Of a DNA stretch of 63,342 nucleotides, positions 10,713 through 32,007 are shown piece after piece; position 1 is the stretch's first letter, and every line of letters begins with the position of its first letter. The notes under the pieces are model-generated. The model was given only the letters and a program-made list of their open reading frames with translations. It made no database searches and was not told the DNA's origin. Source of the stretch: Thermoplasmatota archaeon (GTDB taxonomy: Archaea > Thermoplasmatota > Thermoplasmata > Halarchaeoplasmatales > Halarchaeoplasmataceae). A program made the position numbers and the translations under genes. The stretch spans positions 1 through 63,342 of the forward strand of contig JAGXLI010000003.1 in assembly GCA_018334755.1 (NCBI GenBank). The letters are read 5' to 3'.

Positions 10713-10894
10713 CTTTTCGTTCTTCTAAATTTTATCCAACTAATCCAATTTGTTTTTTATGTAAAACCGCTTTCAAATTATGAAAGATAGATTTAAACTC
10801 TTCGATTTGATGAATTTTCTTGAATAGAAGTGGATAGAACATTTTTTGAAATTAGCCGATCACTTGTTCATATATAAGATTTATACTATTTGTT

Positions 10895-12373: not shown

Positions 12374-13343
12374 CGATATCATCTCTCCTGAACTGCATTA
12401 TACTGCTGGGCAGACTGAACATGTAGAAAGAACCCGTAGGATCTCTAACGCTGTTCATCGTCTCCATCACTTCCTCCTCGGTCTTATTCTCTTCTCCTTC
12501 TATCCCCATGACAGAGGCCAGAGCTGAAGCCATCCTGCTTCCCTGGTCCTCTACGCCCTTGACCGGGCCGTTACAGCCGACGCACGGATGACCCACTTCT
12601 GTACAGGGCGCTTCGCACATCCCCGCAGTGGCGGGGCCCATGCAAAGTATCCCTTGGTCCAATAAACATTCGTCTGGGTCTATGTCGGTCGCCTCCTGTA
12701 TAGGGATCAATCTCTCTATCTCTTTCTCTTCCCTCTCCATAGGACACGGGTCACAGACGCTCTTGTCCGTAATCAGGTCCCTTTCTTCCACTTCGATCTC
12801 ATCATCCAAAAGGGCTGGAAGAGCATCTTCGAGTTGGGTCGGCAGAGGCGGACAGCCAGGAAGATAGTATTCGACATCTATATGTTCATCGAGGGGTTTA
12901 ATATGGTCTAGCATCTCCGCTAATTCGAGTTCCCCTTCTTCGACTTCCGTTATCTTCTGCGGGAACGGACCCTGGTCCGTGGTTTTGTTAGTATAACCTT
13001 TCTCCAGTAGTTCATCCTTACTGGAAAGATTGCCCAGGCCGAAAACCCCTCCGTTGCATGCGCAGGAACCGTAGGAGACAACTTCTTTTGTTTTCTCTCT
13101 CAGTAACTCGACCATCTCCTTGTTCTCGTCAAGCCTTATAGCTCCATTTATGAACATGATGTCTATCTCGTTTTCATCCATGGCCTTTACGTCTTCGTAC
13201 TTGGGATCCATCGCACAGGGCCAAAAGACTATCTCGGCCTGCTCCGCTACATCCAGCAGCATCTCGTCTATATCCAATATACTGACCTGGCATCCTCCGC
13301 AGGACCCAGTCCAGTAAAAGCCTATCTTCTTCTTTTCACTCAT
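12366..13343 (-). CDS. mvhG: [NiFe] hydrogenase small subunit (MvhG)
   Basis: KKKIGFYWTGSCGGCQVSILD and C-terminal Cys clusters (CMGPATAGMCEAPC.. GHPCVGCNGP). ATG 13343 overlaps the mvhD stop by 8 nt. Confidence 0.9.
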   Translation of the reverse strand: MSEKKKIGFYWTGSCGGCQVSILDIDEMLLDVAEQAEIVFWPCAMDPKYEDVKAMDENEIDIMFINGAIRLDENKEMVELLREKTKEVVSYGSCACNGGVFGLGNLSSKDELLEKGYTNKTTDQGPFPQKITEVEEGELELAEMLDHIKPLDEHIDVEYYLPGCPPLPTQLEDALPALLDDEIEVEERDLITDKSVCDPCPMEREEKEIERLIPIQEATDIDPDECLLDQGILCMGPATAGMCEAPCTEVGHPCVGCNGPVKGVEDQGSRMASALASVMGIEGEENKTEEEVMETMNSVRDPTGSFYMFSLPSSIMQFRRDDIDE

Positions 13344-13779
13344 CGGTATCGTCCTCCAGTGAAGTACCGTCAAGATTTAGGGGGCCTATTTCCTTGACCT
13401 CCTCTGTCATCTCTTCCATGACCCTTGCAAATTTACCGCCTTCAGCCGAAGAGATCCATTCCAACCTCAACCTCGTTGGCTTGATACCGAAATCTTCCAT
13501 GATCTTCTTCATCAGGTCCGCTTTTCTTATCGTTTTATAATTACCGTTGATATAGTGGCAGTCCCCGGGATGGCACCCCGCGATCAATACTCCGTCAGCT
13601 CCTTTCTTGAACGATCTTAAGACGTGTTCGGGAGAAACCCTCGAGGAACACATGACTTTGATATTCAATATGTTAGCAGGATACTGTTCTCGGCTCACAC
13701 CGGCCAGGTCAGCACCGGCGTAACTGCACCAGTTGCAAAGGAAGGCTATTATTTTTGGTTCGAAGTCTTCGTCACTCAT
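13336..13779 (-). CDS. mvhD: Methyl-viologen-reducing hydrogenase delta subunit (MvhD)
   Basis: 147 aa. KIIAFLCNWCSYAGADLAG ... VMCSSRV ... AGCHPGDCHY signature. Confidence 0.9.
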   Translation of the reverse strand: MSDEDFEPKIIAFLCNWCSYAGADLAGVSREQYPANILNIKVMCSSRVSPEHVLRSFKKGADGVLIAGCHPGDCHYINGNYKTIRKADLMKKIMEDFGIKPTRLRLEWISSAEGGKFARVMEEMTEEVKEIGPLNLDGTSLEDDTDE

Positions 13780-13780
13780 C

Positions 13781-15751: not shown

Positions 15752-15752
15752 A

Positions 15753-16640
15753 TCATTCCGCCTCCTCGATACTCTCGATGGCTTCTAAGTTATCTACGGG
15801 ACTCAGATTTAATTCCAGTCCTAATCTAGATTGCTCGATGCCCATCGCGACCCCCAATAGTTGGATATAATACATCACCGGTAGATCCAAAGATTCACCG
15901 ATCGTATCTGCGGCGCTATCCTGTTTAGAATCTAACATCCTATGACCCCACGGACAGATGGTTGATAGACCGTCGAAGCCTTGATCCTGCACCGCTTCAA
16001 TTTTTTCCCCCGCCTTCGTAAGGGCCGATTCATTGTGATCCGAAATGACCTGACCTCCGCAGCAGTCTAGTTTCTCTGGATAATCTTCGGTTCCTATCCC
16101 GATTGTCTCCATAAGCTCTTCCAATTTCTGGGGATTCTCGGAATCGTCAGGTCTATCCAGATCGTTAGGTCTGATCGTATTACAGCCGTAATGAGCGGCA
16201 AAAGTAAGATCATCAAGAGGTTCTTCCACCTGATCTTCTATCTCGTCTAAACCGATCTCGTCGTGCAGTAGATCCAGTGTATGATATAGTTCCGTACTCC
16301 CCTCGTATTGTAAGTCCTCTTCCTCCAGCTTAGAGTTTATCTTGTCTTTCAGCTCCGGATTTTCTTCCAGACTCTCCTTCGCCTCTGTCAAACCCAGATG
16401 ACAGATCGGGCACGGCGCGTAGAGGTCTATACCCTTCTTCTCACAGAGCGCCATGTTCCTCGCGGAAAGGTACATAGTCGTGAACATATTGACATTCCGA
16501 AGAGGGGCTCCACAGCAGGTAGATTCCTCTAGATCTACCAACTCTATATCGAATTTTGGGAGCACTTCTCTGATCGACATCTCATAGCCGTACTGTTCTG
16601 TCGGGATAACACATCCAAGATAAAGGCCGAGTTCCTTCAT
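15753..16640 (-). CDS. hdrB: Heterodisulfide reductase subunit B (HdrB)
   Basis: Two CCG domains (ESTCCGAPL; KLDCCGGQ). ATG 16640 preceded by GGTGA, 5 nt after the hdrC stop. Confidence 0.9.
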   Translation of the reverse strand: MKELGLYLGCVIPTEQYGYEMSIREVLPKFDIELVDLEESTCCGAPLRNVNMFTTMYLSARNMALCEKKGIDLYAPCPICHLGLTEAKESLEENPELKDKINSKLEEEDLQYEGSTELYHTLDLLHDEIGLDEIEDQVEEPLDDLTFAAHYGCNTIRPNDLDRPDDSENPQKLEELMETIGIGTEDYPEKLDCCGGQVISDHNESALTKAGEKIEAVQDQGFDGLSTICPWGHRMLDSKQDSAADTIGESLDLPVMYYIQLLGVAMGIEQSRLGLELNLSPVDNLEAIESIEEAE

Positions 16641-16645
16641 AATAA

Positions 16646-17191
16646 TCACCTCAGTTTCTCCTGAGTCGCTTTCATCAATATCTGTTGGACTTTATCCATA
16701 TCTTCAGGTTCAGGTACTGGGGGTAGATCAAGGTCTTCCCTTTTTCTGGTTTCGTTAGCCCGGTTCAGAACCTCTTTAGGTTGCTGGATCAGACCGTTTC
16801 CGAGCACCGACTGCAGCATCTTCTGATAGCCGCTGGGTATCTCTTTTCCCGCGGCCACGGCAAGGTTCTTCAGGGCAAAAATTACCCGGACCGGGGAAAG
16901 GTCCTGCGGGCATCTTTCTTGGCATTTGAAACACTGCATGCATGTCCAGATCTCGTCTGAATTCACCAGCTCGTCTATAAAACCGGCCTTAGATTTCCCC
17001 ATGATGGAATGAGGTTCCAGTTCCAGCAATATAAAGGCCTCACATCCGGAGGTACATTTACCGCACTGGTAGCAGAGGTCCGGTATATCCTCCTTTAAGC
17101 CTTCTAACGTTTCTTCTATCTTTTCCTGCTCCTCTTCATCCGGTTCTGCCATCGAGGTTAAGTCTATCAAGCTCATCTTTTCACGGCTCAC
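16646..17191 (-). CDS. hdrC: Heterodisulfide reductase subunit C (HdrC)
   Basis: CYQCGKCTSGCE and CMQCFKCQERCP motifs. Possible starts are GTG 17191 (abutting the crt stop) or ATG 17176. Confidence 0.9.
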   Translation of the reverse strand: MSREKMSLIDLTSMAEPDEEEQEKIEETLEGLKEDIPDLCYQCGKCTSGCEAFILLELEPHSIMGKSKAGFIDELVNSDEIWTCMQCFKCQERCPQDLSPVRVIFALKNLAVAAGKEIPSGYQKMLQSVLGNGLIQQPKEVLNRANETRKREDLDLPPVPEPEDMDKVQQILMKATQEKLR

Positions 17192-17953
17192 TCATTCTCC
17201 TGTGAAGTCGGCCTCTCTTTTTTCAATGAATGCTTCCAAACCTTTTTCGTGGTCCTCGGTTTTGAAACATCTCTCAAACTGTTCGGATTCTATTTTTAAA
17301 CCCTCGTCAAGAGAAACTTCGATCCCCTTGTTCATCGATGATTTGGCGTATTCAAGGGCTAACGGCGCATTAGAACATATCTCTTCGGCTATCTCAAAAG
17401 AGAAATCCATAAGTTCATCTGCTTCCACTACGTGATTGGCCAGCCCTAATCTTTTAGCCTCTTCGGCATCGATATTCTTACCGGTAAATATCAATTCCTT
17501 CGCAGGACCCATGCCTATCAACCTCGCTAATCGCTGGGTCCCGCCGAATCCCGGAATGAGCCCCAGTCCCACTTCTGGTTGGCCGAACTGTGCCTTTTCG
17601 GAGGCGATGATGAAATCACAGCTCATGGCGATCTCAGTGCCCCCGCCGAGGGCGAAACCGTTAACTGCCGCTATCACCGGCTTAGGAAAATTTTCTATAC
17701 GATTCAAGACGGACTGACCTTTTTGGGAAAACTCCCTCGCTTCTTTGGGGTCCATCTCTTTCATCTGTTTGATATCGGCTCCTCCGACGAAGGCCTTACC
17801 TTTTCCCGTCATTATGACCGCTCTGCTTTCGTCGTCCTTCACTTCGTCCAACTTCTCATCTAATTCGTCCAAAAGTTCCCTACATACCGCATTTACCGGA
17901 GGATTGTTCAATTTGATTACAGTGATATGATCCTCTCTTTCTATCTCGATCAT
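17192..17953 (-). CDS. crt: Enoyl-CoA hydratase (crotonase)
   Basis: 253 aa. ALGGGTEIAMSCDFIIA ... FGQPEVGLGLIPGFGGTQRL, with both catalytic Glu present. Confidence 0.9.
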   Translation of the reverse strand: MIEIEREDHITVIKLNNPPVNAVCRELLDELDEKLDEVKDDESRAVIMTGKGKAFVGGADIKQMKEMDPKEAREFSQKGQSVLNRIENFPKPVIAAVNGFALGGGTEIAMSCDFIIASEKAQFGQPEVGLGLIPGFGGTQRLARLIGMGPAKELIFTGKNIDAEEAKRLGLANHVVEADELMDFSFEIAEEICSNAPLALEYAKSSMNKGIEVSLDEGLKIESEQFERCFKTEDHEKGLEAFIEKREADFTGE

Positions 17954-17964
17954 TTAAATCACCT

Positions 17965-18816
17965 TTAGCTGTAGTCGTAGAAGCCTTTTCCACTTTTCCT
18001 GCCCAGTTCTCCAGCTCTAACCTTCTTTTTTAGGAGGGGGCATGGTCTATACTTTGAATCGTTGAATTCCTCGTAAAGGACCTCCATTATATGGAGTACG
18101 GTATCTAGGCCGATCAAGTCACCCAATTCTAACGGGCCCATGGGATGATTCATCCCCAGCTTCATGACCTGATCTACGTCCTCGACCTCTGCAACACCGG
18201 TCTCTACACAGTAGATCGCTTCGTTGATCATCGGGATCAAAACCCGGTTGGAAACAAACCCGGGTGAATCGTTAACTTCTACCGGTTCTTTCCCCATCTC
18301 CTCGGCTAGAGAAACTATGGTATCAGTGGTTTCATCTGAGGTCGTCAAAGCTCGTATGACCTCGACTAGATCCATCTTCGGGACCGGATTCATGAAGTGC
18401 ATCCCTATGAATTTCTCTGGCCTCTCGGTGATCCCGGCCATCTTGGTTATCGGGATCGTGGAGGTGTTGGAGGCCAATATAGTATCTGGACCACACAGTT
18501 CGTCCAGCTCTTGGAACACTTCTTTCTTTATCTCGAAGTCTTCAACCACCGCCTCTATGATGAGGTCACAATCGCTCAAGTCCTCTAGTTCAAGGGTGGT
18601 CTCGATCCTCCCCAGTATCTCCTCTTTCTCTTCTTCCGAGATCCTATCTTTTTCCACTCCTTTGGACAGCGATCTCTTTATCCCCTTCATGCCGTTATCT
18701 AAAAATTCCTGTTTGATGTCTCTCATAACGACTTCGTGACTAGCTGTGGCCGAGACTTGGGCTATACCGTGACCCATCGTTCCTGCGCCGACTACTCCTA
18801 TCTTTTCTATATCCAT
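17965..18816 (-). CDS. hbd: 3-hydroxybutyryl-CoA dehydrogenase
   Basis: 283 aa. [42 protein letters not shown], typical Hbd/HADH. Confidence 0.92.
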
Positions 18817-18844
18817 CTTAACTACCTCTTTTTGTCTTCAATAT

Positions 18845-20023
18845 TTATATCTCAACGAGCATCGTAACTGCATTTCCACCGCCTAGGCATGCAGTAGCTA
18901 GACCTCTTCCTCCTCCTCTCTGTTTCAACGCGTAGAGAAGAGTCGTTAGAATCCGAGCGCCACTGCATCCTATCGGGTGACCGAGCGCCACGGCTCCGCC
19001 GTGGACGTTGAATTTATCATCAGGAATGTCAAATTCCTTCTGTACAGCTGCAGAAGCGGAAGCGAAGGCCTCATTATGCTCTATCAAGTCAAGGTCCGAG
19101 ATGTCAAGATCGTTCCTTTCTAAGATCGTTTTTATCCCGGGTATTGGAGCTTCCATCACATTCTTGGGTTTAACTCCAGACGTGTAATAATCCACTATCT
19201 TAGCCATCGGTTCGACCCCCTTTTCTTTAGCTTTTTCTTCGCTCGTCACCACGGTGGCAGAGGAACCAGCGGATATCTGTGAGGCGTTCCCCGCAGTTAT
19301 GTATCCATCATCCTGGAACGCCGGTGAAAGCTTGCTGAGGTCGTCAAGTGAAGTGTCTGGCCGGATGCCTTCGTCTTCCTCGAATATTTTCGCGTCGCCT
19401 CTCCTCTGAGGCACCTCTACTGGGACTATCTCATCGTCAAATTTCCCATTTTCCCTTGCTTCGGCTGCGAGTTGATGGCTCCGGAGAGCGAATCTGTCAA
19501 CGTCTTCTCTGCTCAGATCAAATCTCTCTGCTATCCTATCTCCGGTGATCCCCATATGAAAATCGTTAAAGTAATCCCAGAGACCGTCGTAGACCATCGC
19601 ATCTACTAGGTCCCCGTCATTCATTCTATACCCATATCTTGCCTTCCTCAGGATATAGGGCGCTTTATCCATATTTTCCATCCCGCCGGCTACTATGGTA
19701 TCGTATTCATTAGCCTTGATACTGTTAGCGGCGTTCATAATGGTCTTTAGCCCCGAGCCGCAGACTTTGTTAACAGTAACGGCTCCGACATCTACCGGCA
19801 TATCGGCACCTAAAGCGGCCTGGCGAGCAGGATTCTGTCCCATCCCCGCCGATAATACCAGTCCCATCTGGACTTCATCTACATCTTCCTTCTTTATACT
19901 GGCTCTATCAACAGCCTCATCGATTGTGATACTACCCAGTTTTGGGGACCGCATATCCTTCAACGTTCCACCAAATTTACCGATCGGTGTTCTTACCGCA
20001 GAAACTATTACAGGATCTTTCAT
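18845..20023 (-). CDS. thl: Acetyl-CoA C-acetyltransferase (bacterial-type thiolase II)
   Basis: 392 aa. VNKVCGSGLK (nucleophile Cys), NEAFA, GGAVALGHPIGCSGAR, CLGGGNAV. Confidence 0.93.
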   Translation of the reverse strand: MKDPVIVSAVRTPIGKFGGTLKDMRSPKLGSITIDEAVDRASIKKEDVDEVQMGLVLSAGMGQNPARQAALGADMPVDVGAVTVNKVCGSGLKTIMNAANSIKANEYDTIVAGGMENMDKAPYILRKARYGYRMNDGDLVDAMVYDGLWDYFNDFHMGITGDRIAERFDLSREDVDRFALRSHQLAAEARENGKFDDEIVPVEVPQRRGDAKIFEEDEGIRPDTSLDDLSKLSPAFQDDGYITAGNASQISAGSSATVVTSEEKAKEKGVEPMAKIVDYYTSGVKPKNVMEAPIPGIKTILERNDLDISDLDLIEHNEAFASASAAVQKEFDIPDDKFNVHGGAVALGHPIGCSGARILTTLLYALKQRGGGRGLATACLGGGNAVTMLVEI

Positions 20024-20081
20024 GGTTATTTCTCCTTTTAAATCTCATTTAACATATTGCGGAGGAAGATATAGAAACCAT

Positions 20082-20090
20082 CTATTTAAG
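20082..20090 (-). promoter_or_regulatory. Possible internal TATA box ahead of thl
   Basis: Minus-strand CTTAAATAG in the only sizeable spacer (126 nt) of the acd...mvhA array, about 60 nt upstream of the thl ATG. A GGAG box sits 8 nt before the ATG. Confidence 0.25.
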
Positions 20091-20149
20091 ATTGGCGAAA
20101 AGGATAGAAGGTTGAATTCTTTGAGCGGATAAGTGAAGTCTATCTAGGG

Positions 20150-21106
20150 TCAACCTTTTTCCTCGTTTATCGCCTCGACCAATTTCGGCACCACTTCATA
20201 GAGATCTCCTACGATGCCGTAGTCCGCCGATTCGAAGATAGGGGCGTCCTCGTCTTTGTTTATCGCCACGACGGTTCCAGAATCACGCATACCGGCTATA
20301 TGTTGGATCTGTCCGGATATCCCGATAGCTACGTAAAGCTCCGGCTTCACTTCGTGTCCCGAAAGACCTATCCAGTGATCCTCGGGGAGCCATTTAAGAT
20401 CAGCAGCGATGGGCCGAGAACAGCCTATAGTTCCTCTTTCGAGGGCTTCACTAAGGTCCTCTGCAAGATCTAGATCCTCCTGATTCTCGAAACCCCGACC
20501 GCAGGAGACTATTATCTCGGCATCCTCGACGTTGACTCCCTCACTTTCTTTTTCCTGGACATCTATGATCTTCGATTCCGCCTCGATAACTTCTAGTTCT
20601 TCTCGGGTTATCTCACCTTCTCTTCCTTCATCCTTGGACAAGGGATCGAAGTTCTTCGACGGGATCGTTACAATAGAGGGTTCTGATATGAAATTTTTCA
20701 CGGCGACCGCGTTTCCGCTGTACGCGACCCTTTCAGCAGTTAAGGTGCCATCCTCGAAGTAAAGATCGGTACAGTCGGTCACGCAGCCGGTCTCCAGCTT
20801 TGCCGCTAATCTAGGAGCTATTTCCTTTCCACTCTTATCGGAACCGATCAATACGATCTCCGAATCGGTCTTTTCTACCAGCTTTTTCAAAACTTGAGTG
20901 TACTCTTCTGCCTTGAATTGCTCTATATCCGTGTTAGCGAGGATAACTTCATCTGACCCATGGTAGATCAACTCGTTAGCAACCTCATCATCATCTTCTC
21001 CGATGATCACAGAGGTCACCTTACTGCCCGTTTCATCTGCTAATTCCCTTCCTTTGGCTATCAATTCTTTAGTTGTATCTTTATCGTCAGAATATATCAG
21101 CACCAT
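20150..21106 (-). CDS. etfA: Electron transfer flavoprotein large (alpha) subunit
   Basis: 318 aa. C-terminal FAD domain with VAIGISGQIQHIAGM. No N-terminal ferredoxin domain. Confidence 0.9.
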   Translation of the reverse strand: MVLIYSDDKDTTKELIAKGRELADETGSKVTSVIIGEDDDEVANELIYHGSDEVILANTDIEQFKAEEYTQVLKKLVEKTDSEIVLIGSDKSGKEIAPRLAAKLETGCVTDCTDLYFEDGTLTAERVAYSGNAVAVKNFISEPSIVTIPSKNFDPLSKDEGREGEITREELEVIEAESKIIDVQEKESEGVNVEDAEIIVSCGRGFENQEDLDLAEDLSEALERGTIGCSRPIAADLKWLPEDHWIGLSGHEVKPELYVAIGISGQIQHIAGMRDSGTVVAINKDEDAPIFESADYGIVGDLYEVVPKLVEAINEEKG

Positions 21107-21108
21107 CT

Positions 21109-21882
21109 TTATCCCTCCAGTAAACCCTCTTTGGCAATATTTTCGGCCAGATTTTTAACAGAATCTTCTAACTCGTCCTCGTCGAATATGATGTTCTTAC
21201 GTTCCATGGAAACGCCTCTTATGTCCTTCATTTCCGTAGTAGGTTCAATCTCATGATCCATGAATTCCTTCGGTCCCCATTCGTTTATGGGTTTATTTGC
21301 CGCCCCTAGGATCTCCTGAAGGCTCGGTAATCGGGGGTCATTTATTTCTTTAGTTACGGTGACAACAACAGGGTAGGGCGATTCCACTGTCATGATCTTG
21401 TTTCCGCCGACATCCCTTTCACCGACTATCTTCTCCTCTTCAACATCAAGGTTTTCGGCATAAGTGATCTGAGGGACATTCAACAACTCAGCTATCCTGG
21501 GTCCAACTTGACCGGAGAACAGATCGATGGAGGCTTCGCCGCACAGCACCAGATCGATATCGCCGATCTCTTCGACAGCGCCGGCCAATAGTTCAGAGAC
21601 AACCGTATAGTCAGATTCTTCCGGTGGAGATATAATCACCGCTTCGTCAGCCCCCATGGCGAGTAACTCTTTCATATTCTCCATGTTATCCACGGACCCG
21701 ACGGTCAAAATAGTTATCTCTCCGCCGTATTCCTCTTTAATCTTTATAGCCTCCTCGACAGCACTTTTTTCTATATCGTTGACTTCCTTCGAGATACCTT
21801 CTAGGATCGGCTTATTCGTTTTTTCGTCTATCTTTATCTCTGAAACATCGACGACTTCCTTGGCACAGACCGCGATATTCAT
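21109..21882 (-). CDS. etfB: Electron transfer flavoprotein small (beta) subunit
   Basis: MNIAVCAKEV..., VLCGEASIDLFSGQVGPRIAELLNVPQITY. ATG 21882 lies 10 nt after the acd stop; the TTG 21891 of the ORF track is less likely. Confidence 0.9.
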   Translation of the reverse strand: MNIAVCAKEVVDVSEIKIDEKTNKPILEGISKEVNDIEKSAVEEAIKIKEEYGGEITILTVGSVDNMENMKELLAMGADEAVIISPPEESDYTVVSELLAGAVEEIGDIDLVLCGEASIDLFSGQVGPRIAELLNVPQITYAENLDVEEEKIVGERDVGGNKIMTVESPYPVVVTVTKEINDPRLPSLQEILGAANKPINEWGPKEFMDHEIEPTTEMKDIRGVSMERKNIIFDEDELEDSVKNLAENIAKEGLLEG

Positions 21883-21892
21883 CTTTATCAAC

Positions 21893-23032
21893 TCAACTTA
21901 GAAGACTTCTTGCGATGACCATCTTTTGGGCTTCCGAAGTACCCTCGTAAATTTCGGTTATCTTCGCGTCCCTGAACAGCTGCTCGACCTTGTATTCCTC
22001 TATATAACCATAGCCTCCATGGATCTGGATACCTTCATCTGCGGCCTCATTGGCAACTTCAGAGGCGAACAACTTGGCCATAGATGCTTCTTTCGTGAAC
22101 CTTTCACCACGGTCTGCAGCGTCCGCGGCATTATAGACGAGCAACCTTGCAGCCTCTGTCTTGGTCTCCATATCGGCCAATTTGAACTGGATCCCCTGGA
22201 AGTTGGAGATAGATTTACCGAATTGCTCTCTCTGTTGAGAGTATTTGATGGATTCGTCTATCGCCGCTTGTGCGATCCCGACCGCTTGGGCCCCGATACC
22301 TATTCTCCCGTGATCTAGGGCACTGAGCGCTATCTTATAACCTTCACCTTCTTTTCCGAGTAGATTTTCCTCAGGTACCTCCATATCTTCAAAGAACAAT
22401 TCCGAGACCTTGTTAGCATGAATCCCCATCTTGTCGAAAACATCGCCGACCTCGAATCCGTCGGTATCGCTGTTGACGATAAATGCACTTATACCATTTC
22501 GGCCTTTGCTTTTATCGGTCACCGCGAAGACTAGAAAAAGCCCCGCTTCGCTGCCGCTGGTTATGAATGTCTTCTGGCCGTTGATTATGTATTTGTCGCC
22601 GTCCTTTTCTGCAGTAGTCTGCATGGCGCCAAGATTGGTCCCGGCGTCTGGTTCTGTACCGCCGAATGCACCGATCTTTTCACCGCTCGCCAACATCGGC
22701 AGATATTTTTCTTTCTGTTCTTCGGTCCCGTAATGCATTATAGGGCTTGCGACCAATGAGTTATGGACTTCGGTTATAACGCCGGTAGCCGCACACTTTC
22801 TCGAAATCTCTTCGATCACTATGGCAAAACTCACAGTATCCATCCCGGCTCCATCGTACTCCTCAGGGATCATGATCCCGAGAAGGCCGAGATCGGACAT
22901 CTTATCGAGTATCTCGTGAGGATATTCCCTCTCTTCATCCAATTCGTCAGCTACTGGTTCGATCTCATTCTCTGCAAAATCTCTTACCATATTACGGACC
23001 ATCTTCTGGTTATCGGTCAGTTCGAAGTTCAT
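21893..23032 (-). CDS. acd: Short-chain (butyryl-CoA type) acyl-CoA dehydrogenase
   Basis: 379 aa. GAFGGTEPDAGTN, QREQFGK, IYEGTSEAQ (catalytic Glu region). Confidence 0.93.
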   Translation of the reverse strand: MNFELTDNQKMVRNMVRDFAENEIEPVADELDEEREYPHEILDKMSDLGLLGIMIPEEYDGAGMDTVSFAIVIEEISRKCAATGVITEVHNSLVASPIMHYGTEEQKEKYLPMLASGEKIGAFGGTEPDAGTNLGAMQTTAEKDGDKYIINGQKTFITSGSEAGLFLVFAVTDKSKGRNGISAFIVNSDTDGFEVGDVFDKMGIHANKVSELFFEDMEVPEENLLGKEGEGYKIALSALDHGRIGIGAQAVGIAQAAIDESIKYSQQREQFGKSISNFQGIQFKLADMETKTEAARLLVYNAADAADRGERFTKEASMAKLFASEVANEAADEGIQIHGGYGYIEEYKVEQLFRDAKITEIYEGTSEAQKMVIARSLLS

Positions 23033-23053
23033 GCTGTCATCAATCTTCCTGCA

Positions 23054-23063
23054 CTAAATAAAA
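23054..23063 (-). promoter_or_regulatory. TATA-like box for acd (leaderless geometry)
   Basis: Minus-strand TTTTATTTAG centred about 26 nt upstream of ATG 23032. Confidence 0.35.
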
Positions 23064-23149
23064 TTTTCGTCCCAGGATGTTTGTCAGTAAAGAGCCAAGA
23101 CTGGCTCAAATCTCGAATGTGGTTCCCGAGCTTTAGGATAAAATTCCGT

Positions 23150-23677
23150 CTATCCTTCCAATTTAGTCAAGTTCTCTTTGTATCGGGTCGAGAGTTCCTT
23201 GTAGATCTGTTTATAATCCTTCCATTTCTTCTTGTACTCTTCATCCACTTCCTTCACTATTTTAGCCGGAACGCCGACTGCGACCTTTTCGTCCGGTATA
23301 TCCTTCTCGTTTGCCACCAAAGCTCCCTCTCCCACGACGCTCCACTCGCCGATAACTGCAAAATCGCTTATTATAGCTCCCATCCCGACGACCGCGTAGT
23401 CCTTGATCTCCGGTCCGTGGATTATCGCTCCGTGCCCTATAGTCACCCAATCACCTATAACCGTTTTCTCACCGGGTCTTGCGTGAACGACGCAGTTTTC
23501 CTGTATGTTGGTATTATCTCCAACGACAACGGTCCCATAATCACCTTTTATCTTAGCTCCTGGGCCTATGAAGCAGTCCTTACCTATGGTGACGTCCCCG
23601 ACGACTTCCGCACTGTCACTCACGTACGCAGTCTTATCCACATTAGGTCTTCTTCCTTCAAACTTATACAATGTCAT
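23150..23677 (-). CDS. Left-handed beta-helix protein, gamma-carbonic anhydrase / PaaY / CaiE family
   Basis: 175 aa. Hexapeptide repeats, with His triad positions conserved (VVHARPG ... IGHGAIIHG). Confidence 0.85.
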   Translation of the reverse strand: MTLYKFEGRRPNVDKTAYVSDSAEVVGDVTIGKDCFIGPGAKIKGDYGTVVVGDNTNIQENCVVHARPGEKTVIGDWVTIGHGAIIHGPEIKDYAVVGMGAIISDFAVIGEWSVVGEGALVANEKDIPDEKVAVGVPAKIVKEVDEEYKKKWKDYKQIYKELSTRYKENLTKLEG

Positions 23678-23808
23678 GATAGAATCTATAGAAAATACTT
23701 ATAAATCTTTTTTGTAGCCGGATTAAAAATAGTATAGATCTCCACAAAACATTTTTTAACTTGAACGTGTTTTCTCCCCTTGATATCTAAATTTAGAGGT
23801 GAAGCAAG

Positions 23809-24216
23809 ATGGGGCGGAAGATCAGAGTATTGATAGCAAAACCCGGGTTGGACGGTCACGATAGAGGGGCGAAGGTGGTGGCTCGCGCGCTCAGAGATGC
23901 GGGTATGGAAGTGATCTATACGGGATTACATCAGACCCCTGAACAGATCGTGGAAGCCGCGATTCAAGAAGATGTCGTTGTCATAGGTCTTTCGGCACTC
24001 TCAGGTGCTCACTTGGAATTATTTCCCCAGGTGGTTGACCTTCTTGAAGAAAATAATGCGGAAGATATAATAGTGCTCGGCGGGGGAATAATCCCGGATG
24101 ATGATGCCGAAAAGCTTAGGGAAGAGGGGTTAGCTAAGATATTCGGACCGGGTACACCGACCCAGGAGATCGTTGAATATATAAGAGAGAATGTGGAACT
24201 CGAGAGCGGGGAATGA
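23809..24216 (+). CDS. B12-dependent acyl-CoA mutase, small cobalamin-binding subunit
   Basis: 135 aa. [34 protein letters not shown] (DxHxxG), GGGIIP. Confidence 0.9.
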
Positions 24217-24220
24217 CTTG

Positions 24221-25168
24221 ATGGAGATAGTATCTGAATTATTGTCAGGGGACAGGAGAGCCCTCGCTAGATTGATAAGCATGGTAGAAAATTTAGAGCC
24301 GGGGGCGAAGAAGGCCCTTTCTGAACTCTATTCTTATACAGGAAACGCACACGTCATAGGGATAACTGGTCCTCCGGGTTCCGGGAAAAGTACGGTAGTT
24401 GATAAACTCACTTTGGAATTATTGGATGAAGGTAAAAGCGTTGGGATAATAGCTGTCGATCCCACCTCTCCATTTACTGGGGGAGCGCTCTTAGGAGATA
24501 GGGTCAGGATGAACGAGGTATCTCTCGACGAGGACGTGTTCATCCGAAGCATGGGTACGAGGGGACATCTCGGCGGATTGGCCACCAAGACGAGAGATGT
24601 CATAAAGATATTGGATGCCTTCGGTAAAGATTTTATTCTTGTCGAAACAGTTGGAGCGGGACAGTCGGAAGTGGAGGTAGTAAAGGCCGCACATACCACC
24701 ATAATAGTCGAGGTCCCGGGGCTGGGAGACGATATACAGGCGATAAAAGCAGGTATATTGGAGATAGGCGATATCTTTATCGTAAATAAGGCGGACAGAG
24801 ATGGGGCCGATAACACCGCTAGAGAATTGGACACGATGCTCGGTATGAATCAAGAAGAAAAAGATTGGGAACCCCCCATCCTGAAGACCGTAGCTAAGGA
24901 AGGCAAAAATATCGATGAACTGAATGATGCGATCAGCTCTCATCTGTCTCATCTGAAGGAAACGGGCGGTTTTGAAGAGTTGAAAAAGAAACAGATCAGA
25001 GATGAATTCTTAGATATAGTGAGAGAAAAGATATACTCCTACACCATGGAACGTACAGCTGAAGGAAAAATAGATGAGATAGTCGAGAACGTGATGAACT
25101 CCGAGATCGATCCATATTCGGCTGCCGAAGACTTTCTAGAGCCGTTGGAAGAAGATCGGAAGGATTGA
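24221..25168 (+). CDS. meaB: Mutase-associated G3E GTPase (MeaB/ArgK family)
   Basis: GITGPPGSGKST, VETVGAGQSE, NKADR. ATG 24221 (MEIVSELL...) is preferred over the overlapping 24191 start. Confidence 0.9.
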   Translation: MEIVSELLSGDRRALARLISMVENLEPGAKKALSELYSYTGNAHVIGITGPPGSGKSTVVDKLTLELLDEGKSVGIIAVDPTSPFTGGALLGDRVRMNEVSLDEDVFIRSMGTRGHLGGLATKTRDVIKILDAFGKDFILVETVGAGQSEVEVVKAAHTTIIVEVPGLGDDIQAIKAGILEIGDIFIVNKADRDGADNTARELDTMLGMNQEEKDWEPPILKTVAKEGKNIDELNDAISSHLSHLKETGGFEELKKKQIRDEFLDIVREKIYSYTMERTAEGKIDEIVENVMNSEIDPYSAAEDFLEPLEEDRKD

Positions 25169-25201: not shown

Positions 25202-26881
25202 TCAGTATATCAGCGGTTCGTCGTATTCTCCAAATACCTCTTTAAGGACACTTGTTATCTCACCGAGAGTCGCATATGCCTTGGCGCATCTCAAAATGGC
25301 GGGCATCGTATTTTCATCGCCTTCAGCCACTTCTCTCAGATTGTCCAATGCTTCCTGGACCTCTTTGTCGTCTCTCTCTTCTTTAAGTTTCTCTAATCGT
25401 TCTATCTGCGTTTTCTCACCTTCCGGATCCATCTCTAAAAGAGGGATATCAGGCTCCTCGTCAAGTTGGAATTCGTTCACCCCTACCACCGTCCGCTTAT
25501 TTTCTTCTATCTCTTTCTGGTACTGTGCCGATGCGTCCGCTATCTCTTTCTGGAAGAAACCCTTTTTGATCGCGGGTATGACCCCTCCTAGACTCTCTAT
25601 CTTGTCGAAGTACTTGTAGGCCTCTTCTTCCATGTGATCGGTAAGCCACTCGACATAATACGATCCTCCCAGGGGATCGATCGTGTTAGGGGCGCCGCTT
25701 TCATGGGCTATGGTTTGTTGAGTTCTGAGAGCTAGCCTGACGGCCTTCTCAGAAGGTAAAGCTAAAGCTTCATCCATCGAATTGGTATGGAGCGATTGGG
25801 TCCCGCCCATAACGGCGGCAAGGGCTTGGATCGCGACCCTGATAAGGTTCACTTCGGGCTGCTGGGCGGTTAGAGAGACACCGGAAGTTTGGGTGTGGAA
25901 TCTCATCCACATAGATCGTTCCTTTTCAGCGCCAAAAGTTTCCTTCATCTCCCTCGCCCATATCCTCCTGGCGGCTCGAAATTTAGCGATCTCTTCGAAA
26001 AAATCGTTATGAGCGTTGAAGAAAAACGACAGACGCGGGGCAAAATCATCGACATCCAATCCCCGATCGACAGCCCATCTTACATATTCCATCCCGTCAG
26101 CTAGAGTAAAGGCAAGCTCTTGGACGGCCGTCGCACCTGCCTCTCTGATATGATACCCGGATATAGATATCGTATTCCATTTCGGCACGTTTTTTGATCC
26201 GTATTCGAACGTATCTACGATCAACCGCATCGACGGTTCTGGGGGAAAGATGAATGATTTTTGAGCGATATACTCCTTCAAAATATCGTTCTGGATCGTT
26301 CCTCTGAGCTCCTCTTTGGGTACACCCTTCTTTTCCGCCATGGCGATATAGAAAGCCCATAATATAGAGGCGGGTCCGTTTATAGTCATAGACGTGCTGA
26401 TCTCACTAGGGTCTATACCATCGAAGAGGATCTCCATGTCCTTCAGAGACGAAACGGCCACGCCGCATTTCCCGAATTCACCTTCGGCCATCGCGTCATC
26501 GGTGTCGTAGCCGTACAAGGTGGGATAATCGAACGCGATAGATAAGCCGGTTTCACCATGGTCTATCAGATATTTAAATCGCTCATTGGTCTCTTCAGCG
26601 GTCCCAAAACCAGAAAATTGCCTCATGGTCCAAAGCTTTCCCCTGTGCATGGTGGGGTGAATGCCCCTGGTGAACGGATATTCCCCCGGAAATCCTAGAT
26701 CTTCTTGATAATCGAAATCTTCTAGGTCATCAGGAGTGTAGAGTCTATCGACGGGCATCGAAGAAGTGGTTATGAACTCTTCCTTCCTCTCCGGCCATTT
26801 CTCCAAGTTCGGCTTTAAGGTCTCATCTTTCCATCTTTCTTTTTCTTCAGCTATCTTTTCCTTATCACACATAACATTCAC
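25202..26881 (-). CDS. B12-dependent acyl-CoA mutase, large (substrate-binding) subunit; not a canonical methylmalonyl-CoA mutase
   Basis: 559 aa. [72 protein letters not shown]. The signature positions are His79 and Gln207. Confidence 0.9.
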
Positions 26882-26893
26882 CTCAGGTTCAGA

Positions 26894-27448
26894 TCAAAAT
26901 TCGATCCCCTCTCTTCCATCCATCCCTATCATATAAGGATGCTTAACTTCACTCATCACCGTGACTAAATCAGCTAAATCTATTATCGATGGGGGAGCGT
27001 TCCTTCCAGTCAATACGATCTCCATGTGCGGAGGCTTGTTTTCGAGCATCTCTATGACATCTTTTTCTTCTAGAAGTTCGAAATCCAGCACCATGTTCAT
27101 CTCATCTAATACGACTATGTCGTATTCTTCTTCTGATAACACTTCTTTAGCTCTATCAAAACCTTCTTTTGCAAAGTCGATATCGACCTGATCAGGATCG
27201 TTTTTATCTACAAAATCAGCTCGCCCATATTGTTCGATCTCTAAGCCAGGTAAATCTTCTATACTGCTGAGTTCCCCATATTTTATCTGTCCTTTCATGA
27301 ATTGGATGATCATACCTTTTTGATCATGACCCGCGGCTCTCAATGCCAGACCGAGAGCTGCCGTGGTTTTTCCTTTTCCTGTACCCGTGTAAACCTGAAC
27401 GATCCCGCTCCTTTTTTCATCTTCCAAGGGGGAACACCTGTTGAACAT
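26894..27448 (-). CDS. cobO: ATP:cob(I)alamin adenosyltransferase, CobO/BtuR type
   Basis: 184 aa. VYTGTGKGKTTAALGLALRAAGH, QFMKG, VLDE. Confidence 0.85.
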   Translation of the reverse strand: MFNRCSPLEDEKRSGIVQVYTGTGKGKTTAALGLALRAAGHDQKGMIIQFMKGQIKYGELSSIEDLPGLEIEQYGRADFVDKNDPDQVDIDFAKEGFDRAKEVLSEEEYDIVVLDEMNMVLDFELLEEKDVIEMLENKPPHMEIVLTGRNAPPSIIDLADLVTVMSEVKHPYMIGMDGREGIEF

Positions 27449-27551: not shown

Positions 27552-29246
27552 ATGATCGATATGAGCGAAGAACACAACATGTACGAATATGAGAAAGTGA
27601 AAGAAGAATTTGAATGGAACATTCCAGAGTACTATAATTTTGCTTTCGATGAGTTGGATGAAAGAGCTGAAGAGATGCCCGACAAGGACGCGCTGATATC
27701 TATAGACAATTCTGGAAAAAACGCCCAGAAACACACTTTCAAAGAATTGAGCGAGTTGTCCAACAAGTTCGCGAATGTCCTCAAGGACATGGGGCTGGAA
27801 AAGGGAGACAGAGCCATGGTCCTGATCCACAGAGTTCCAGAGTGGTACGTCGCTGTGCTCGGCATGATGAAGCTAGGCGTGATACCCATCCCGACTCCGA
27901 ACCTTGCGGTCTCCGAGGACATCACTTACAGGATAAAAAGGTCAAAGGCGCGTACGATAGTGACGGATTGGTCGAATCACGAGAAAGTCCATAAGGTGAG
28001 AGACAAGGAAGAGATGTCCTCGCTTGAGAACTATATTCTAGTGGATGCTGAGGAAGATAAAGAAGGATGGGAGAAATTCGATGAATTGATGGAAGACGCT
28101 TCAAAAGACCTCGAGAAAGATGATATAGAGAAGACAAAGAGCGACGATCCTTTACTCATATACTTCACTTCTGGAACTACCGGAAAGCCGAAGATGGTCC
28201 TGCATACCCATTCCTATCCATTGGGTCACGAAGTTACGGCGAAGTACGTACAGGATCTTAGAAAAGAAGATATAAACTGGACCATCGCCGACAACGGCTG
28301 GGCTAAAGCCGTCTGGGGCAAGCTTTTTGGACAGTGGATCGTAGGAGCGACAGTAGTGCAGCAGAACATCACCGGTAAGTTCGATCCAAAGAAAGCTTTG
28401 AAGGTACTTCAGGATCATAACGTAACGACTTTCTGCGTTCCGCCGACCATCTACAAGATGATGATAAACGAGGATGTAGAGAGTTACGATCTCAGCTCAC
28501 TGCGTCACTGTCTCAGCGCCGGCGAACCTCTAAATCCCGACGTCATAGATAAGTGGGAAGAGTACACCGGCCTGCACATATACGATTATTACGGCCAGAC
28601 GGAATGCGTAGCGCTTGTATCCAATTATCCCACGATGGAAGTCAAACCCGGCTCGATGGGTAAACCTACCCCTGGCCACGAAGTGGACATAATAGACGAC
28701 AACCAGAAAAGGCTACCCCCAGGAGAGGAAGGTCATATCGGTCTCAAAGTCAAACCCGAAAGACCACCCGGTCTTTTCAAAGAATACTGGAAGGACGAAG
28801 ATAAGACCGCTAAGGTTTTCGACGGCGATTGGTATTACACCGGAGACAGGGCCTACAAAGACGAGGACGGATACTTCTGGTTCGTCGGTCGAGCGGACGA
28901 CGTCATCAAAGCTTCCGGTTACAGGATCGGCCCCTTCGAGGTCGAGAGCGCGCTTCAGGAACATCCCGCGGTTCAGGAACCGGCGGTCATAGGTGCTCCG
29001 CACGAAGTGCGAGGAAAGATAGTGAAGGCCTACGTGATCTTGAACGACGATTACGAGCCGAGTGATGATTTGAAGAAAGAACTGCAGGACCACGTGAAGG
29101 AAGTTACCGCTCCTTACAAGTACCCGAGAGAGATAGATTTCATCGATGAACTGCCGAAGACGATAAGCGGCAAGATCAGGAGAACGGAACTGCGCGATAG
29201 AGCTGAAGAAGAGTACCTAGAAGACCACGACCAGTTACCTTACTGA
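27552..29246 (+). CDS. AMP-forming medium/short-chain acyl-CoA synthetase
   Basis: 564 aa. YFTSGTTGKPKMV, YYGQTE, YYTGDRAYKDEDGYFWFVGRADDVIKASGYRIGPFEVE, LPKTISGKIRR. Confidence 0.9.
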   Translation: MIDMSEEHNMYEYEKVKEEFEWNIPEYYNFAFDELDERAEEMPDKDALISIDNSGKNAQKHTFKELSELSNKFANVLKDMGLEKGDRAMVLIHRVPEWYVAVLGMMKLGVIPIPTPNLAVSEDITYRIKRSKARTIVTDWSNHEKVHKVRDKEEMSSLENYILVDAEEDKEGWEKFDELMEDASKDLEKDDIEKTKSDDPLLIYFTSGTTGKPKMVLHTHSYPLGHEVTAKYVQDLRKEDINWTIADNGWAKAVWGKLFGQWIVGATVVQQNITGKFDPKKALKVLQDHNVTTFCVPPTIYKMMINEDVESYDLSSLRHCLSAGEPLNPDVIDKWEEYTGLHIYDYYGQTECVALVSNYPTMEVKPGSMGKPTPGHEVDIIDDNQKRLPPGEEGHIGLKVKPERPPGLFKEYWKDEDKTAKVFDGDWYYTGDRAYKDEDGYFWFVGRADDVIKASGYRIGPFEVESALQEHPAVQEPAVIGAPHEVRGKIVKAYVILNDDYEPSDDLKKELQDHVKEVTAPYKYPREIDFIDELPKTISGKIRRTELRDRAEEEYLEDHDQLPY

Positions 29247-29363: not shown

Positions 29364-29780
29364 CTATTCTGGCCTGTGTGTATCTATGGGCCAGAATTTG
29401 TATCCGTAGTATATCAGTCCTTCTTCGCTCTCTTCTCCGAGTTTTCTCATAGATGCCTCGACTTCCATACCTCTTTCAACGTCTTCAAAGTCGACGTCTA
29501 CGATATGACCGGTCAATCTGACCCCTTCTTCCATCTCTACTATTGTCATTATGTAGGGAGAAAGATCTTTGAACTCTGGATGGGGTTCGTGGACTTTCGT
29601 ATAAGTCACGATCTCTCCTCTACCCTCTAATTCCTGTTCCTCCATATTGTGGAAACTTTCTCTTCTACATTCCGGACATATATCTCTTGGAGGAAAGTAC
29701 ATTTTCCCGCAGGCGTTGCAGGTAGACCCTATACCCTTGTATCTCTGCCTGATCTCTCTCCAAAATCTTGGGATCGCCAT
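29364..29780 (-). CDS. DUF35 zinc-ribbon/OB-fold protein (scaffold of the archaeal thiolase-HMGCS complex)
   Basis: 138 aa. CNACGKMYFPPRDICPECRR zinc ribbon followed by an OB-fold region. The stop of the upstream thiolase-like gene abuts its ATG. Confidence 0.85.
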   Translation of the reverse strand: MAIPRFWREIRQRYKGIGSTCNACGKMYFPPRDICPECRRESFHNMEEQELEGRGEIVTYTKVHEPHPEFKDLSPYIMTIVEMEEGVRLTGHIVDVDFEDVERGMEVEASMRKLGEESEEGLIYYGYKFWPIDTHRPE

Positions 29781-30959
29781 CTAAGACCACCTCCTCAAGA
29801 TATGAACAATCGCACTCGCGCCGGTTCCTCCTATGTTATGGATTAGCCCGTATTCTGCATTCTCCACCTGTCTATCTCCTGCCTCTTCTCTCAGTTGTAG
29901 CGTTGCTTCGACCGCCTGATTTATACCGGTAGCGCCGACCGGACGGCCTTTCGCTTTCAGTCCGCCGGAAGTGTTTATCGAGATATCTGAATTCAACTTT
30001 GTCTTCCCTTTCTCGGTCGCCGGGCCGCCTTCTCCTTTGTCGAAGAAGCCCAGATCTTCGATGGCCATTATTTCAGTTATGGTATAATTATCGTGGACCT
30101 CGGCGAAGTCGATATCTTTTGGTCCTATATCTTCTCTCTTGTAAGCCTTTTCAGACGCTCTTTTGGTCGCTTCCATCGTACCTATATCATCTCTCTCGTG
30201 CACGGCCAAGTTGTCGCCACCCTGACCTATACTAGCTATCTCTACAGGTTCGGTCTGGAAGCTTTCAGCTTTCTCCACTGGACACAATGCCACGGCGGCG
30301 GCACCGTCAGAGATCGGAGCGCAGTCGAACATACCTAAGGGATCAGAAACCATGGGTGCGCTCTTGACAAAATCCTTCGAGGTCTCCCTTGGATACTGGG
30401 CGTTAGGGTTCTTAGCCGCGTTCTCATGATTTTTTACGGCAACCTCAGCCAGTTGGTCCTTCGTTGTGCCGTACTCGTCCATATGGTATCTAGCCATCAT
30501 CGCATAGAGGGAATCGAAAGTTGCTCCGAAGACCGTTTCCCATTCTTGATCGGCTGTAGAGGAAAGGATATCTTTCGCCTCCTGTTCTCCGACATCGGTC
30601 ATCTTCTCCGCTCCTCCGACGACGACGAAGTCATCCATGCCTGAAGCTACCGATTTGTATCCCTCGGCCAGAGCCATACCTCCGGAAGCACCTCCGGATT
30701 CTATCCTCGTTGAAGGTACTTCGCTCAATCCGGCGTAATCCGCTATCAGCGGGGCGATATGTTCCTGATTTATGAGCTTGCCGGCTGACATATTGCCTAT
30801 ATACATCTTCTCGACTTCGTCACCTCTCATCCCAGCATCTTTCAATGCCTTCAGACCGGCTTCGATGCCCAGTTCTCTCAGCGATTTATCCCAGAGTTCT
30901 CCTATTTGGGTCTCTCCTATACCTATTATAGCTACGTCTCTCAAATCATCCACCTCCAT
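29781..30959 (-). CDS. Archaeal-type (SCP2-like) thiolase homologue lacking the catalytic Cys and His
   Basis: [70 protein letters not shown]. The nucleophile motif reads ESGGASGG and the C-terminal motif reads [11 protein letters not shown] 30959 (MEVDD...) overlaps the HMGCS stop. Confidence 0.85.
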
Positions 30960-32007
30960 GGATCTTATCTCTATATTTAGCATACACTGCATATGAGATG
31001 TATTCTTCTCCAGTCGTAACGTCTTCTATCTTTGGAACGTCCTGCTCCTCTATCTTCTCTATGTTTTCGGTCACTTTGATATCGAAACTGTCGGCTCCAG
31101 CTCCTGAGCCGTATGAAGTCACCAGTATATTATCTCCAGGTTCTGCCTGATCTAATGTTGCCGCTAATCCCAGGGGAACAGCGCCTGAATAAGTGTTGCC
31201 TATTTTTGGAACTAGAAGGCCGGGCTCTATCTGTTCTTTAGAGAAACCCATCTTTTTTGCCGCCTTCATGGGAAACTTACCGTTAGGTTGATGGAAGACC
31301 GCATAGTCGTAATCTTCGGGCTCTTTTCCAGTTTCCTCTAGCAACTTTTCAGTACAAGTGGTAACATGTTTAAAGTAAGCCGGTTTACCAGTGAACCTTC
31401 CACCGTGCTGCGGATATTTTTCTCCCTCTCTTCTCCAGAAGTCAGGGGTATCTGTCGTAAAAGAGCAGGTACGTTCTATCGTTGCTAGAAGGTCTTCGGA
31501 CCCGATCACATAGGCGGCGCCTCCGGCTCCCGCCGAATATTCTAAAGCATCAGACGGAGCTCCCTGTGAAGTGTCCGCTCCGATGGCCATACCGTTCTTG
31601 ATCATACCTGAACTCACCATCCCCATACAGGTCTGGAATGCGGCCGTACCTGCCTTACAGGCGAATTCATAATCGGCTGCCGTCATATGTGGAGAAGCCG
31701 CTAAGGAAGCCGCTACGATGGTGGCAGTCGGCTTCACCGCGTAGGGATGCGACTCCGAACCGACATATATCGCATCTAGATCGTTTCCCTTTATACCCGC
31801 TCTCTGGATCGCCCACTTCGCGGCTTGAGTAGAGATCGTTACAACGTCCTCATCTGGAGCCGGGACCGACTTTTGCTCGATCCTCAGACCCTTTCCCATG
31901 GCTTCGCCGTCCTTTCCCCAGACATCACCGATCTCTTTGGGGGTGATCCTGTACTTAGGGACATAACCCGCATATCCTTTTATTCCAACTTCTTTTTCCG
32001 TTTTCAT
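30946..32007 (-). CDS. Hydroxymethylglutaryl-CoA synthase (archaeal)
   Basis: 353 aa. [36 protein letters not shown] (catalytic Cys), FHQPNGKF. Confidence 0.9.

Follow-up and report, generated by a model that had tools for sequence, protein, structure and literature searches.

The question raised by this locus is which acyl-CoA is rearranged by the mutase large subunit encoded on the minus strand, at 25202-26881, of a 63,342-nucleotide stretch of DNA from a Thermoplasmatota archaeon (assembly GCA_018334755.1, contig JAGXLI010000003.1; the whole stretch is called the window below). Public databases name this protein and its relatives generically "methylmalonyl-CoA mutase" (MCM), and a first-pass annotation of the same DNA had proposed a mutase resembling isobutyryl-CoA mutase (ICM) or 2-hydroxyisobutyryl-CoA mutase (HCM), or one of novel specificity. 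The residues at the substrate-reading positions point to the first of these: the gene probably encodes the large subunit of a split, adenosylcobalamin (AdoCbl)-dependent ICM of the IcmA/IcmB type, which would link isobutyrate or valine carbon to the butyryl-CoA pathway encoded beside it. The reaction most likely turns isobutyryl-CoA and n-butyryl-CoA into each other.

The active-site register was established with phmmer alignments against the sequences of solved structures, which run without gaps to MutB of P. shermanii over approximately residues 66-310. Residues are numbered from the GTG of the 559-codon open reading frame (ORF), as in the first-pass annotation, a choice retained because it equals, by coincidence, the native MutB numbering over that span. 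That annotation had set His79 (CAC) and Gln207 (CAA) at the positions of Tyr89 and Arg207 of MutB. Both residues and their peptides are present exactly as it described, and Gln207 does face Arg207, in an ungapped alignment to 'FMVRNTYIYPP' of MutB. The assignment of His79 is ten residues out of register: the tyrosine of the MutB motif 'ATMY' is Tyr79, whereas Tyr89 is that of 'WTIRQYAGF'. In the ungapped alignments to MutB, human MMUT and HcmA, Phe89 stands at the Tyr89/Ile90 site and Gln207 at the Arg207/Gln208 site, so that the pair is Phe/Gln and not His/Gln. In that region PDB entry 5REQ, which we take to be the Y89F mutant of MutB, differs from 1REQ only at Tyr89, reading RQFAGF. A 35-residue fragment around Gln207 also aligned without gaps to MutB SEQRES residues 193-226 and to IcmF (4xc6) SEQRES residues 749-782, with Gln207 falling on IcmF SEQRES residue 762, a match of the position number only; this is presumably native residue 742, assuming a 20-residue tag and the Gln742 numbering.

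Phe/Gln is reportedly the pair of both ICM and IcmF (Phe80/Gln198 in the Streptomyces cinnamonensis enzyme, Phe598/Gln742 in IcmF). The residue at the real Tyr89 position therefore matches ICM, and the statement that it corresponded to no characterised specificity does not survive, nor does the novel-specificity half of the proposal, for which there is no evidence; the ICM/HCM-like half stands, as does the argument that Gln at the Arg207 position speaks against methylmalonyl-CoA as substrate. Gln197, Tyr243, His244, Arg283 and Ser285 are kept, and position 116 (Asp117 in HcmA, where it binds the substrate hydroxyl) is Ala, in 'LSIAFD'. On this comparison, the carboxylate-binding pair Tyr89/Arg207 of MCM is replaced by Phe89/Gln207, and the catalytic scaffold is retained.

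Annotated relatives from plasmid records served as controls, for which the same alignment columns (positions 89/207/116) were tabulated. The split mutase of Ilyobacter polytropus, a bona fide MCM because it lies in an operon with methylmalonyl-CoA epimerase (mce) and a Na+-translocating decarboxylase, has Tyr/Arg/Ala, as do MutB, human MMUT and plasmid proteins of Acetoanaerobium and Streptomyces parvulus. HcmA of Aquincola (4R3U), Methylibium PM1 and Xanthobacter (Xaut_5021) has Ile/Gln/Asp, with the motif 'ISTDFD', and Xaut_5043, presumably the large subunit of pivalyl-CoA mutase (PCM; Xaut_5043/5044), has Leu89/Asn207, altered positions 116-117 and 243, and His79 ('SMH'). Phe/Gln/Ala was found in the present protein and in a Natrinema plasmid protein. 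Named IcmA or IcmF proteins were sought among the plasmid relatives and set aside, the matches in Streptomyces being either MCM of the Tyr/Arg type or Ecm-like and that in Methylobacterium aquaticum Ecm-like. Haloarchaeal megaplasmids also encode large subunits of the Phe/Gln class, annotated 'methylmalonyl-CoA mutase family protein'; the copy on the Natrinema halophilum plasmid (7989-9686 in its locus) has Gln in place of the conserved Arg283 and lacks an adjacent small subunit.

Phe89 and Gln207 occur together in all 120 closest database homologues (71-100% identity), which, where named, belong to Thermoplasmata, Thermoplasmatota, 'Ca. Natronoplasma', Methanomassiliicoccales or a Methanobacteriota archaeon. 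GTDB species genomes were scanned for DNA encoding W-T-[IM]-R-Q-F-[AS]-G-F-G, and at least 120 loci were found. Among the matches listed, these lie in Actinomycetota, including several Streptomyces (the genus of the characterised IcmA), Acidobacteriota, Gemmatimonadota, Chlorobiota/Ignavibacteriota, Planctomycetota, Myxococcota, Nitrospira, Natrialba and a metagenome-assembled genome of Promethearchaeota, among others. Of the 101 that cover both positions, 100 have Gln at position 207 and the other has Lys; at position 79, 108 loci have Tyr, two have Phe and one has His. These counts make Phe89 plus Gln207 a tightly coupled, widespread signature within which His79 is a rare variant. A reading of the Phycisphaerales-type Phe/Gln loci as fused IcmF was ruled out by their ORFs of 560-660 amino acids. 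In a set of 150 sequences, each representing a 50%-identity cluster, 66 have Tyr/Arg and 16 have Phe/Gln, the latter carrying only generic names; a long tail of other pairs follows. The tail includes uncharacterised combinations such as Val/Val, Leu/Cys, Val/Arg, Ile/Cys, Val/Gly and Asn/Ser, often with a changed position 116 as well; candidates for new substrate specificities should be sought among these rather than in the present gene.

A comparison of 94 Phe/Gln with 53 Tyr/Arg sequences ranked 515 positions by their mutual information with class. Positions 207, 89 and 122 tie for the highest value, 0.94. Leu occupies position 122 in 93 of the 94 members of the Phe/Gln class, and Gln or His occupies it in all 53 of the Tyr/Arg class; the present protein has Leu, and as read off the ranking table it agrees with the Phe/Gln class at about 16 of the 18 positions that rank next. 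Position 122 (His122 in MutB, His143 in the human enzyme) thus splits the two groups no less cleanly than positions 89 and 207, and Leu is also found there in HCM proteins; to our knowledge, it has not been discussed as a specificity determinant.

What, then, is His79? It corresponds to Tyr100 of human MMUT, the offset of 21 being verified by Q218/N219, which align with Gln197/Asn198. The human p.Y100C substitution is a mut- allele; Tyr100 contributes to the substrate-binding region near the N-terminal substrate channel, and the Km for AdoCbl is raised in the mutant (PMC4441004). His79 would accordingly be expected near the CoA channel, at a usually aromatic position that does not appear to be among the residues reading the migrating group. 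Of the 120 closest homologues, 95 have Tyr at position 79, 24 have His and one has Phe, and the position ranks 466th of 515 for class discrimination (mutual information 0.03). Among the 150 cluster representatives, His79 occurs in approximately six classes with odd signatures and in no Tyr/Arg (n = 66) or Phe/Gln representative. Close relatives whose gene context is identical exchange His, Tyr and Phe at this site, which suggests that the substitution is near-neutral, and His79 is best regarded as a probable lineage-level variant, not a specificity determinant.

At the level of families, the large subunit matches TIGR00641 with 807 bits and falls below the cut-offs of both the MCM equivalog NF006944 (649 bits, cut-off 876) and the IcmF model NF045497 (381 bits, cut-off 1500). 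Its top PDB match by phmmer is HcmA (4r3u, E = 3.5e-172), followed by MCMs. Public gene calls for this locus and related contigs start at an ATG three codons after the GTG, at 26872, giving 556 amino acids; GAGGTG lies just 5' of this ATG, which is likely the true start. The sequencing runs that contain the locus are all DNA runs, from salt-lake and hypersaline-sediment metagenomes, an occurrence that fits the affiliation with 'Ca. Halarchaeoplasmatales'/Natronoplasma.

A neighbour-joining (NJ) tree was built without columns 89 and 207. It placed the present protein, other Thermoplasmatota, haloarchaea, Streptomyces and all other Phe/Gln proteins in one clade, with HCMs nested inside and the split-type Tyr/Arg MCMs as sister group. 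The Thermoplasmatota group was recovered in 100 of 100 bootstraps, and the smallest clade uniting it with at least 30 other taxa was purely Phe/Gln (plus HCM) in 77 of 100.

The features of the locus are collected in Table 1. The first-pass annotation had placed butyryl- and 3-hydroxybutyryl-CoA genes next to the mutase, and they are indeed there. The motifs of the GTPase P-loop (GPPGSGKST) and NKAD are intact in the MeaB-type chaperone, and the best NCBIfam match of the acyl-CoA synthetase is a branched-chain MbcS-like model, at 546 bits against a cut-off of 850. The 'base-off/His-on' cobalamin site, with its DxHxxG motif, is predicted to come from the separate small subunit. The ORFs scanned across the window contained neither a second mutase nor a domain of methylmalonyl-CoA epimerase or of a carboxylase.

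Table 1. Features of the mutase locus and key residues of its large subunit (positions are those of the window)
Feature	Coordinates	Strand	Evidence or remark
Acyl-CoA mutase large (substrate-binding) subunit, IcmA-like, Phe89/Gln207 class	25202..26881	-	TIGR00641, PDB matches, key residues
Phe89, codon TTT, equivalent of MutB Tyr89, in 'MRQFSGF'	26615..26617	-	Alignment; 120/120 closest homologues
Gln207, codon CAA, in 'YIAQKSF'; MutB Arg207, HcmA Gln208, presumably IcmF residue 742	26261..26263	-	Alignment; 120/120 closest homologues
His79, codon CAC; MutB Tyr79, human MMUT Tyr100; variable, near substrate channel, not the Tyr89 site	26645..26647	-	
Leu122, in 'DYPTLYG', third class-separating residue	26516..26518	-	Coordinates computed from codon map
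Small B12-binding subunit, IcmB-like, 135 aa, motif DGHDRG (DxHxxG)	23809..24216	+	TIGR00640, 182.9 bits; PF02310
MeaB-type G-protein chaperone, start probably ATG 24221	24191..25168	+	TIGR00750, 379 bits; PF03308
CobA/BtuR-type ATP:cob(I)alamin adenosyltransferase, directly upstream of large subunit, same strand	26894..27448	-	NF004637, 200.7 bits; TIGR00708; PF02572
AMP-forming short/branched-chain acyl-CoA synthetase (564 aa), divergent from mutase operon, beyond adenosyltransferase	27552..29246	+	PF00501, PF13193
PaaY/CaiE/gamma-carbonic-anhydrase-like hexapeptide-repeat protein, between acyl-CoA dehydrogenase and small subunit	23150..23677	-	
Acyl-CoA dehydrogenase	21893..23032	-	Butyryl-CoA pathway string (17192..23032)
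EtfB	21109..21891	-	Butyryl-CoA pathway string
EtfA	20150..21106	-	Butyryl-CoA pathway string
Thiolase	18845..20023	-	Butyryl-CoA pathway string
3-Hydroxyacyl-CoA dehydrogenase	17965..18816	-	Butyryl-CoA pathway string
Crotonase	17192..17953	-	Butyryl-CoA pathway string

The hexapeptide-repeat protein may, by analogy with PaaY, act as a CoA-thioester proofreading thioesterase. Its gene adjoins the mutase genes in Natronoplasma-like relatives also, and one of the same superfamily occurs in the HCM clusters of Xanthobacter and Methylibium (at 9942-10988 of locus L005 and 9343-10365 of locus L006). An ORF of 313 amino acids without a family match (22763-23704, plus strand) overlaps it on the opposite strand and is probably not a gene. 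The minus-strand string of beta-oxidation and Etf genes runs on without interruption, over 10895-23032, into HdrC/B/A-like and MvhD/G/A-like (NiFe hydrogenase) genes, which suggests that butyryl-CoA/crotonyl-CoA redox is coupled to a bifurcating or confurcating module of the Hdr/Mvh type. At the hydrogenase end, a family-III CoA-transferase (plus strand), a YaaH/SatP-type acetate or succinate channel and an ACS-type acetyl-CoA synthetase (both minus strand) occupy 6801-10712, a region that fits short-chain fatty-acid handling. On the other side, after the ligase, the minus strand encodes a DUF35 protein (ChsH2-like OB/zinc-ribbon), an archaeal thiolase and a 3-hydroxy-3-methylglutaryl-CoA (HMG-CoA) synthase (29364-32007); this trio, adjacent in a relative too, makes up the archaeal complex that forms acetoacetyl-CoA/HMG-CoA in the mevalonate pathway.

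Contig comparison showed the whole arrangement to be kept in relatives at 88% and 84% identity, including the adenosyltransferase, ligase, hexapeptide gene and butyryl-CoA genes, and the junction of the beta-oxidation string with the Hdr genes is kept in relatives as well. At 72-74% identity, only the large subunit, small subunit and MeaB are kept, sometimes with the adenosyltransferase or with an acyl-CoA dehydrogenase. A 380-amino-acid dehydrogenase of the Glu/Leu/Phe/Val family (13023-14165 of the locus) comes after the large-small-MeaB operon in the complete genome CP070767.1; a link to valine dehydrogenase through this gene was considered and not used as evidence, since it matches glutamate dehydrogenase models only, and weakly. 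The labels of another contig, JBKHKA010000004.1 (95.7 kb), conflict, its protein record reading 'Candidatus Natronoplasma sp.' and its genome record 'Candidatus Aenigmatarchaeota archaeon'.

Several observations weigh against assignment as an ICM. Linkage to the butyrate genes is lost in the relatives at 72-74% identity. Monophyly of the whole Phe/Gln clade was recovered in only 9-30 of 100 bootstraps, by NJ only, and membership of the protein in that clade is therefore likely but unproven. Its identity to true MCMs of the split type (60-61%) is about equal to that to other Phe/Gln proteins (58-65%), and it is only about 50% to HcmA and to the Streptomyces type (49-50%, as measured against the Phe/Gln proteins of that genus). 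Slow turnover of isovaleryl- and pivalyl-CoA is also seen in Phe/Gln enzymes such as IcmF, and for this reason the physiological substrate could be a C5 acyl-CoA.

This last point leads to the best surviving alternative, a Phe/Gln-class mutase for another uncharged acyl-CoA (isovaleryl/pivalyl-CoA or 2-methylbutyryl-CoA), tuned by His75/His79 in the channel, which we regard as improbable. The assignment of the residue equivalent to position 79 to the substrate-binding region of human MMUT (PMC4441004) is in keeping with it, and so is the branched-chain, MbcS-like best match of the neighbouring ligase. His79 is moreover shared with several odd-signature classes and with Xaut_5043, the presumed pivalyl-CoA mutase, and is seen in none of the 66 Tyr/Arg representatives. 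However, His79 swaps with Tyr and Phe among near-identical relatives that have the same neighbourhood, the relative at 88% identity having Tyr, and its mutual information with class is the 0.03 given above; Leu89, Asn207 and residues 116-117 of Xaut_5043 have no counterpart in the present protein, and the adjoining pathway is a C4 pathway.

Still less probable is a 2-hydroxyisobutyryl-CoA or 3-hydroxybutyryl-CoA mutase (of the HCM or RCM type) feeding the adjacent 3-hydroxybutyryl-CoA dehydrogenase. HcmA is the best PDB match, HCMs nest within the Phe/Gln clade, a 3-hydroxyacyl-CoA dehydrogenase is nearby, and the cluster resembles hcm clusters in its small subunit, CoA ligase, MeaB, large subunit, adenosyltransferase and hexapeptide-repeat protein. 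Both HCM-defining residues are nevertheless absent, with Phe89 for Ile90 and Ala116 for Asp117, whereas all three HcmA proteins examined have Ile and Asp; the ligase is also of a different type, a 564-amino-acid ACS/MbcS-like protein in place of the phenylacetate-CoA-ligase-like Hcl of about 477 amino acids. A genuine MCM, as the database names have it and as its 60-61% identity to split MCMs (Ilyobacter's, for example) might suggest, is hardly credible. Tyr89 and Arg207 are both replaced, and the replacement is invariant across the clade; the score of 649 lies under the MCM equivalog cut-off of 876; neither an epimerase nor a carboxylase domain was found in the window ORFs that were scanned, whereas the Ilyobacter MCM has such neighbours; and R207Q is a substitution that reportedly cripples MCM.

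For the preferred ICM, a mechanism can be proposed from the predicted functions of the clustered genes. The adenosyltransferase would make AdoCbl, and MeaB would gate its loading onto the small subunit and the removal of damaged cofactor. Homolysis of the Co-C bond would give the 5'-deoxyadenosyl radical, which would abstract a hydrogen from the substrate, and the CoA-thioester carbon would then move by a 1,2 shift in the neutral, hydrophobic pocket formed by Phe89 and Gln207. Isobutyrate, free or derived from valine, would be activated by the adjacent acyl-CoA synthetase and converted by the mutase from isobutyryl-CoA to butyryl-CoA, which acyl-CoA dehydrogenase/Etf, crotonase, 3-hydroxybutyryl-CoA dehydrogenase and thiolase would take to two acetyl-CoA. 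Flux could run in either direction, and the same genes in reverse would produce isobutyrate.

A bolder reading, which we consider possible but rather unlikely, is that this is the first archaeal ICM system, adjoining a single string of butyryl-CoA dehydrogenase/Etf, beta-oxidation, HdrABC-like and MvhADG-like genes; a haloalkaliphilic Thermoplasmatota archaeon would isomerise valine-derived or external isobutyrate to butyrate and oxidise it to acetate, passing the electrons to H2 by flavin-based electron confurcation, or would run the reverse. If this were true, hundreds of 'methylmalonyl-CoA mutase' annotations in Thermoplasmata would be wrong. In a smaller variant of it, His75 and His79 in the CoA channel would shift the substrate range toward C5 acyl-CoAs.

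The more immediate consequence is one of annotation, as a large, well-conserved Thermoplasmatota clade labelled "methylmalonyl-CoA mutase" bears the ICM signature. Propionate or succinate metabolism deduced from this gene in sediment and salt-lake archaea is probably wrong, and isomerisation of isobutyrate or valine carbon to butyrate should be considered. As of 2010, ICM was regarded as bacterial only (PMC2847961), so that an archaeal enzyme, if shown by assay, would extend its range; a literature search for an archaeal ICM found nothing. The protein is thus best described as a predicted archaeal member of an already known kind of mutase, and the new His signature claimed for it as an alignment artefact.

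Set against characterised or proposed systems, the large subunit shares only His79 with pivalyl-CoA mutase (Xaut_5043, as we take it to be), all pocket positions (Leu89, Asn207, 116-117, 243) being different. The split MCM of Ilyobacter polytropus (ILYOP_RS13925) is 60% identical, of the same length and likewise split and accompanied by MeaB, but it has Tyr89, Arg207 and Gln/His122 where the present protein has Phe89, Gln207 and Leu122, and its neighbours belong to the succinate-propionate pathway instead of the butyrate pathway. HcmA/HcmB (PDB 4R3U) is the closest solved structure (about 50% identity), with Gln at 207/208 and similar accessory genes, and differs in having Ile90 and Asp117 for Phe89 and Ala116. 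IcmF (PDB 4XC6) comprises the same three functional modules, and Gln207 falls on its SEQRES residue 762; however, it is a single 1,093-amino-acid chain, whereas three separate ORFs on two strands are found here, and the similarity is weaker (297 bits against 577 for HcmA in the PDB search), with the NCBIfam IcmF model scoring far below its cut-off. Syntrophothermus lipocalidus isomerises isobutyrate to butyrate ahead of beta-oxidation, and its predicted ICM cluster, Slip_0757-0760, has the same four components (N-domain protein, C-domain protein, a cob(I)alamin adenosyltransferase and a protein resembling MeaB) and the same proposed role (PMC5017805); that cluster is bacterial, is itself a prediction, and is likened to the present one by gene content. 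IcmA/IcmB of Streptomyces cinnamonensis (EC 5.4.99.13) differs from the archaeal system in that the latter is about 49-50% identical to the Streptomyces proteins, has an archaeal host and His79 instead of Tyr, and has both subunits, MeaB and the adenosyltransferase clustered beside a ligase and beta-oxidation genes. The two have in common the split into a large subunit and a B12-binding small subunit of about 135 amino acids, the Phe/Gln pair, the retained His244, Tyr243 and Gln197, and a place for the archaeal protein in the same NJ clade as the Streptomyces Phe/Gln proteins.

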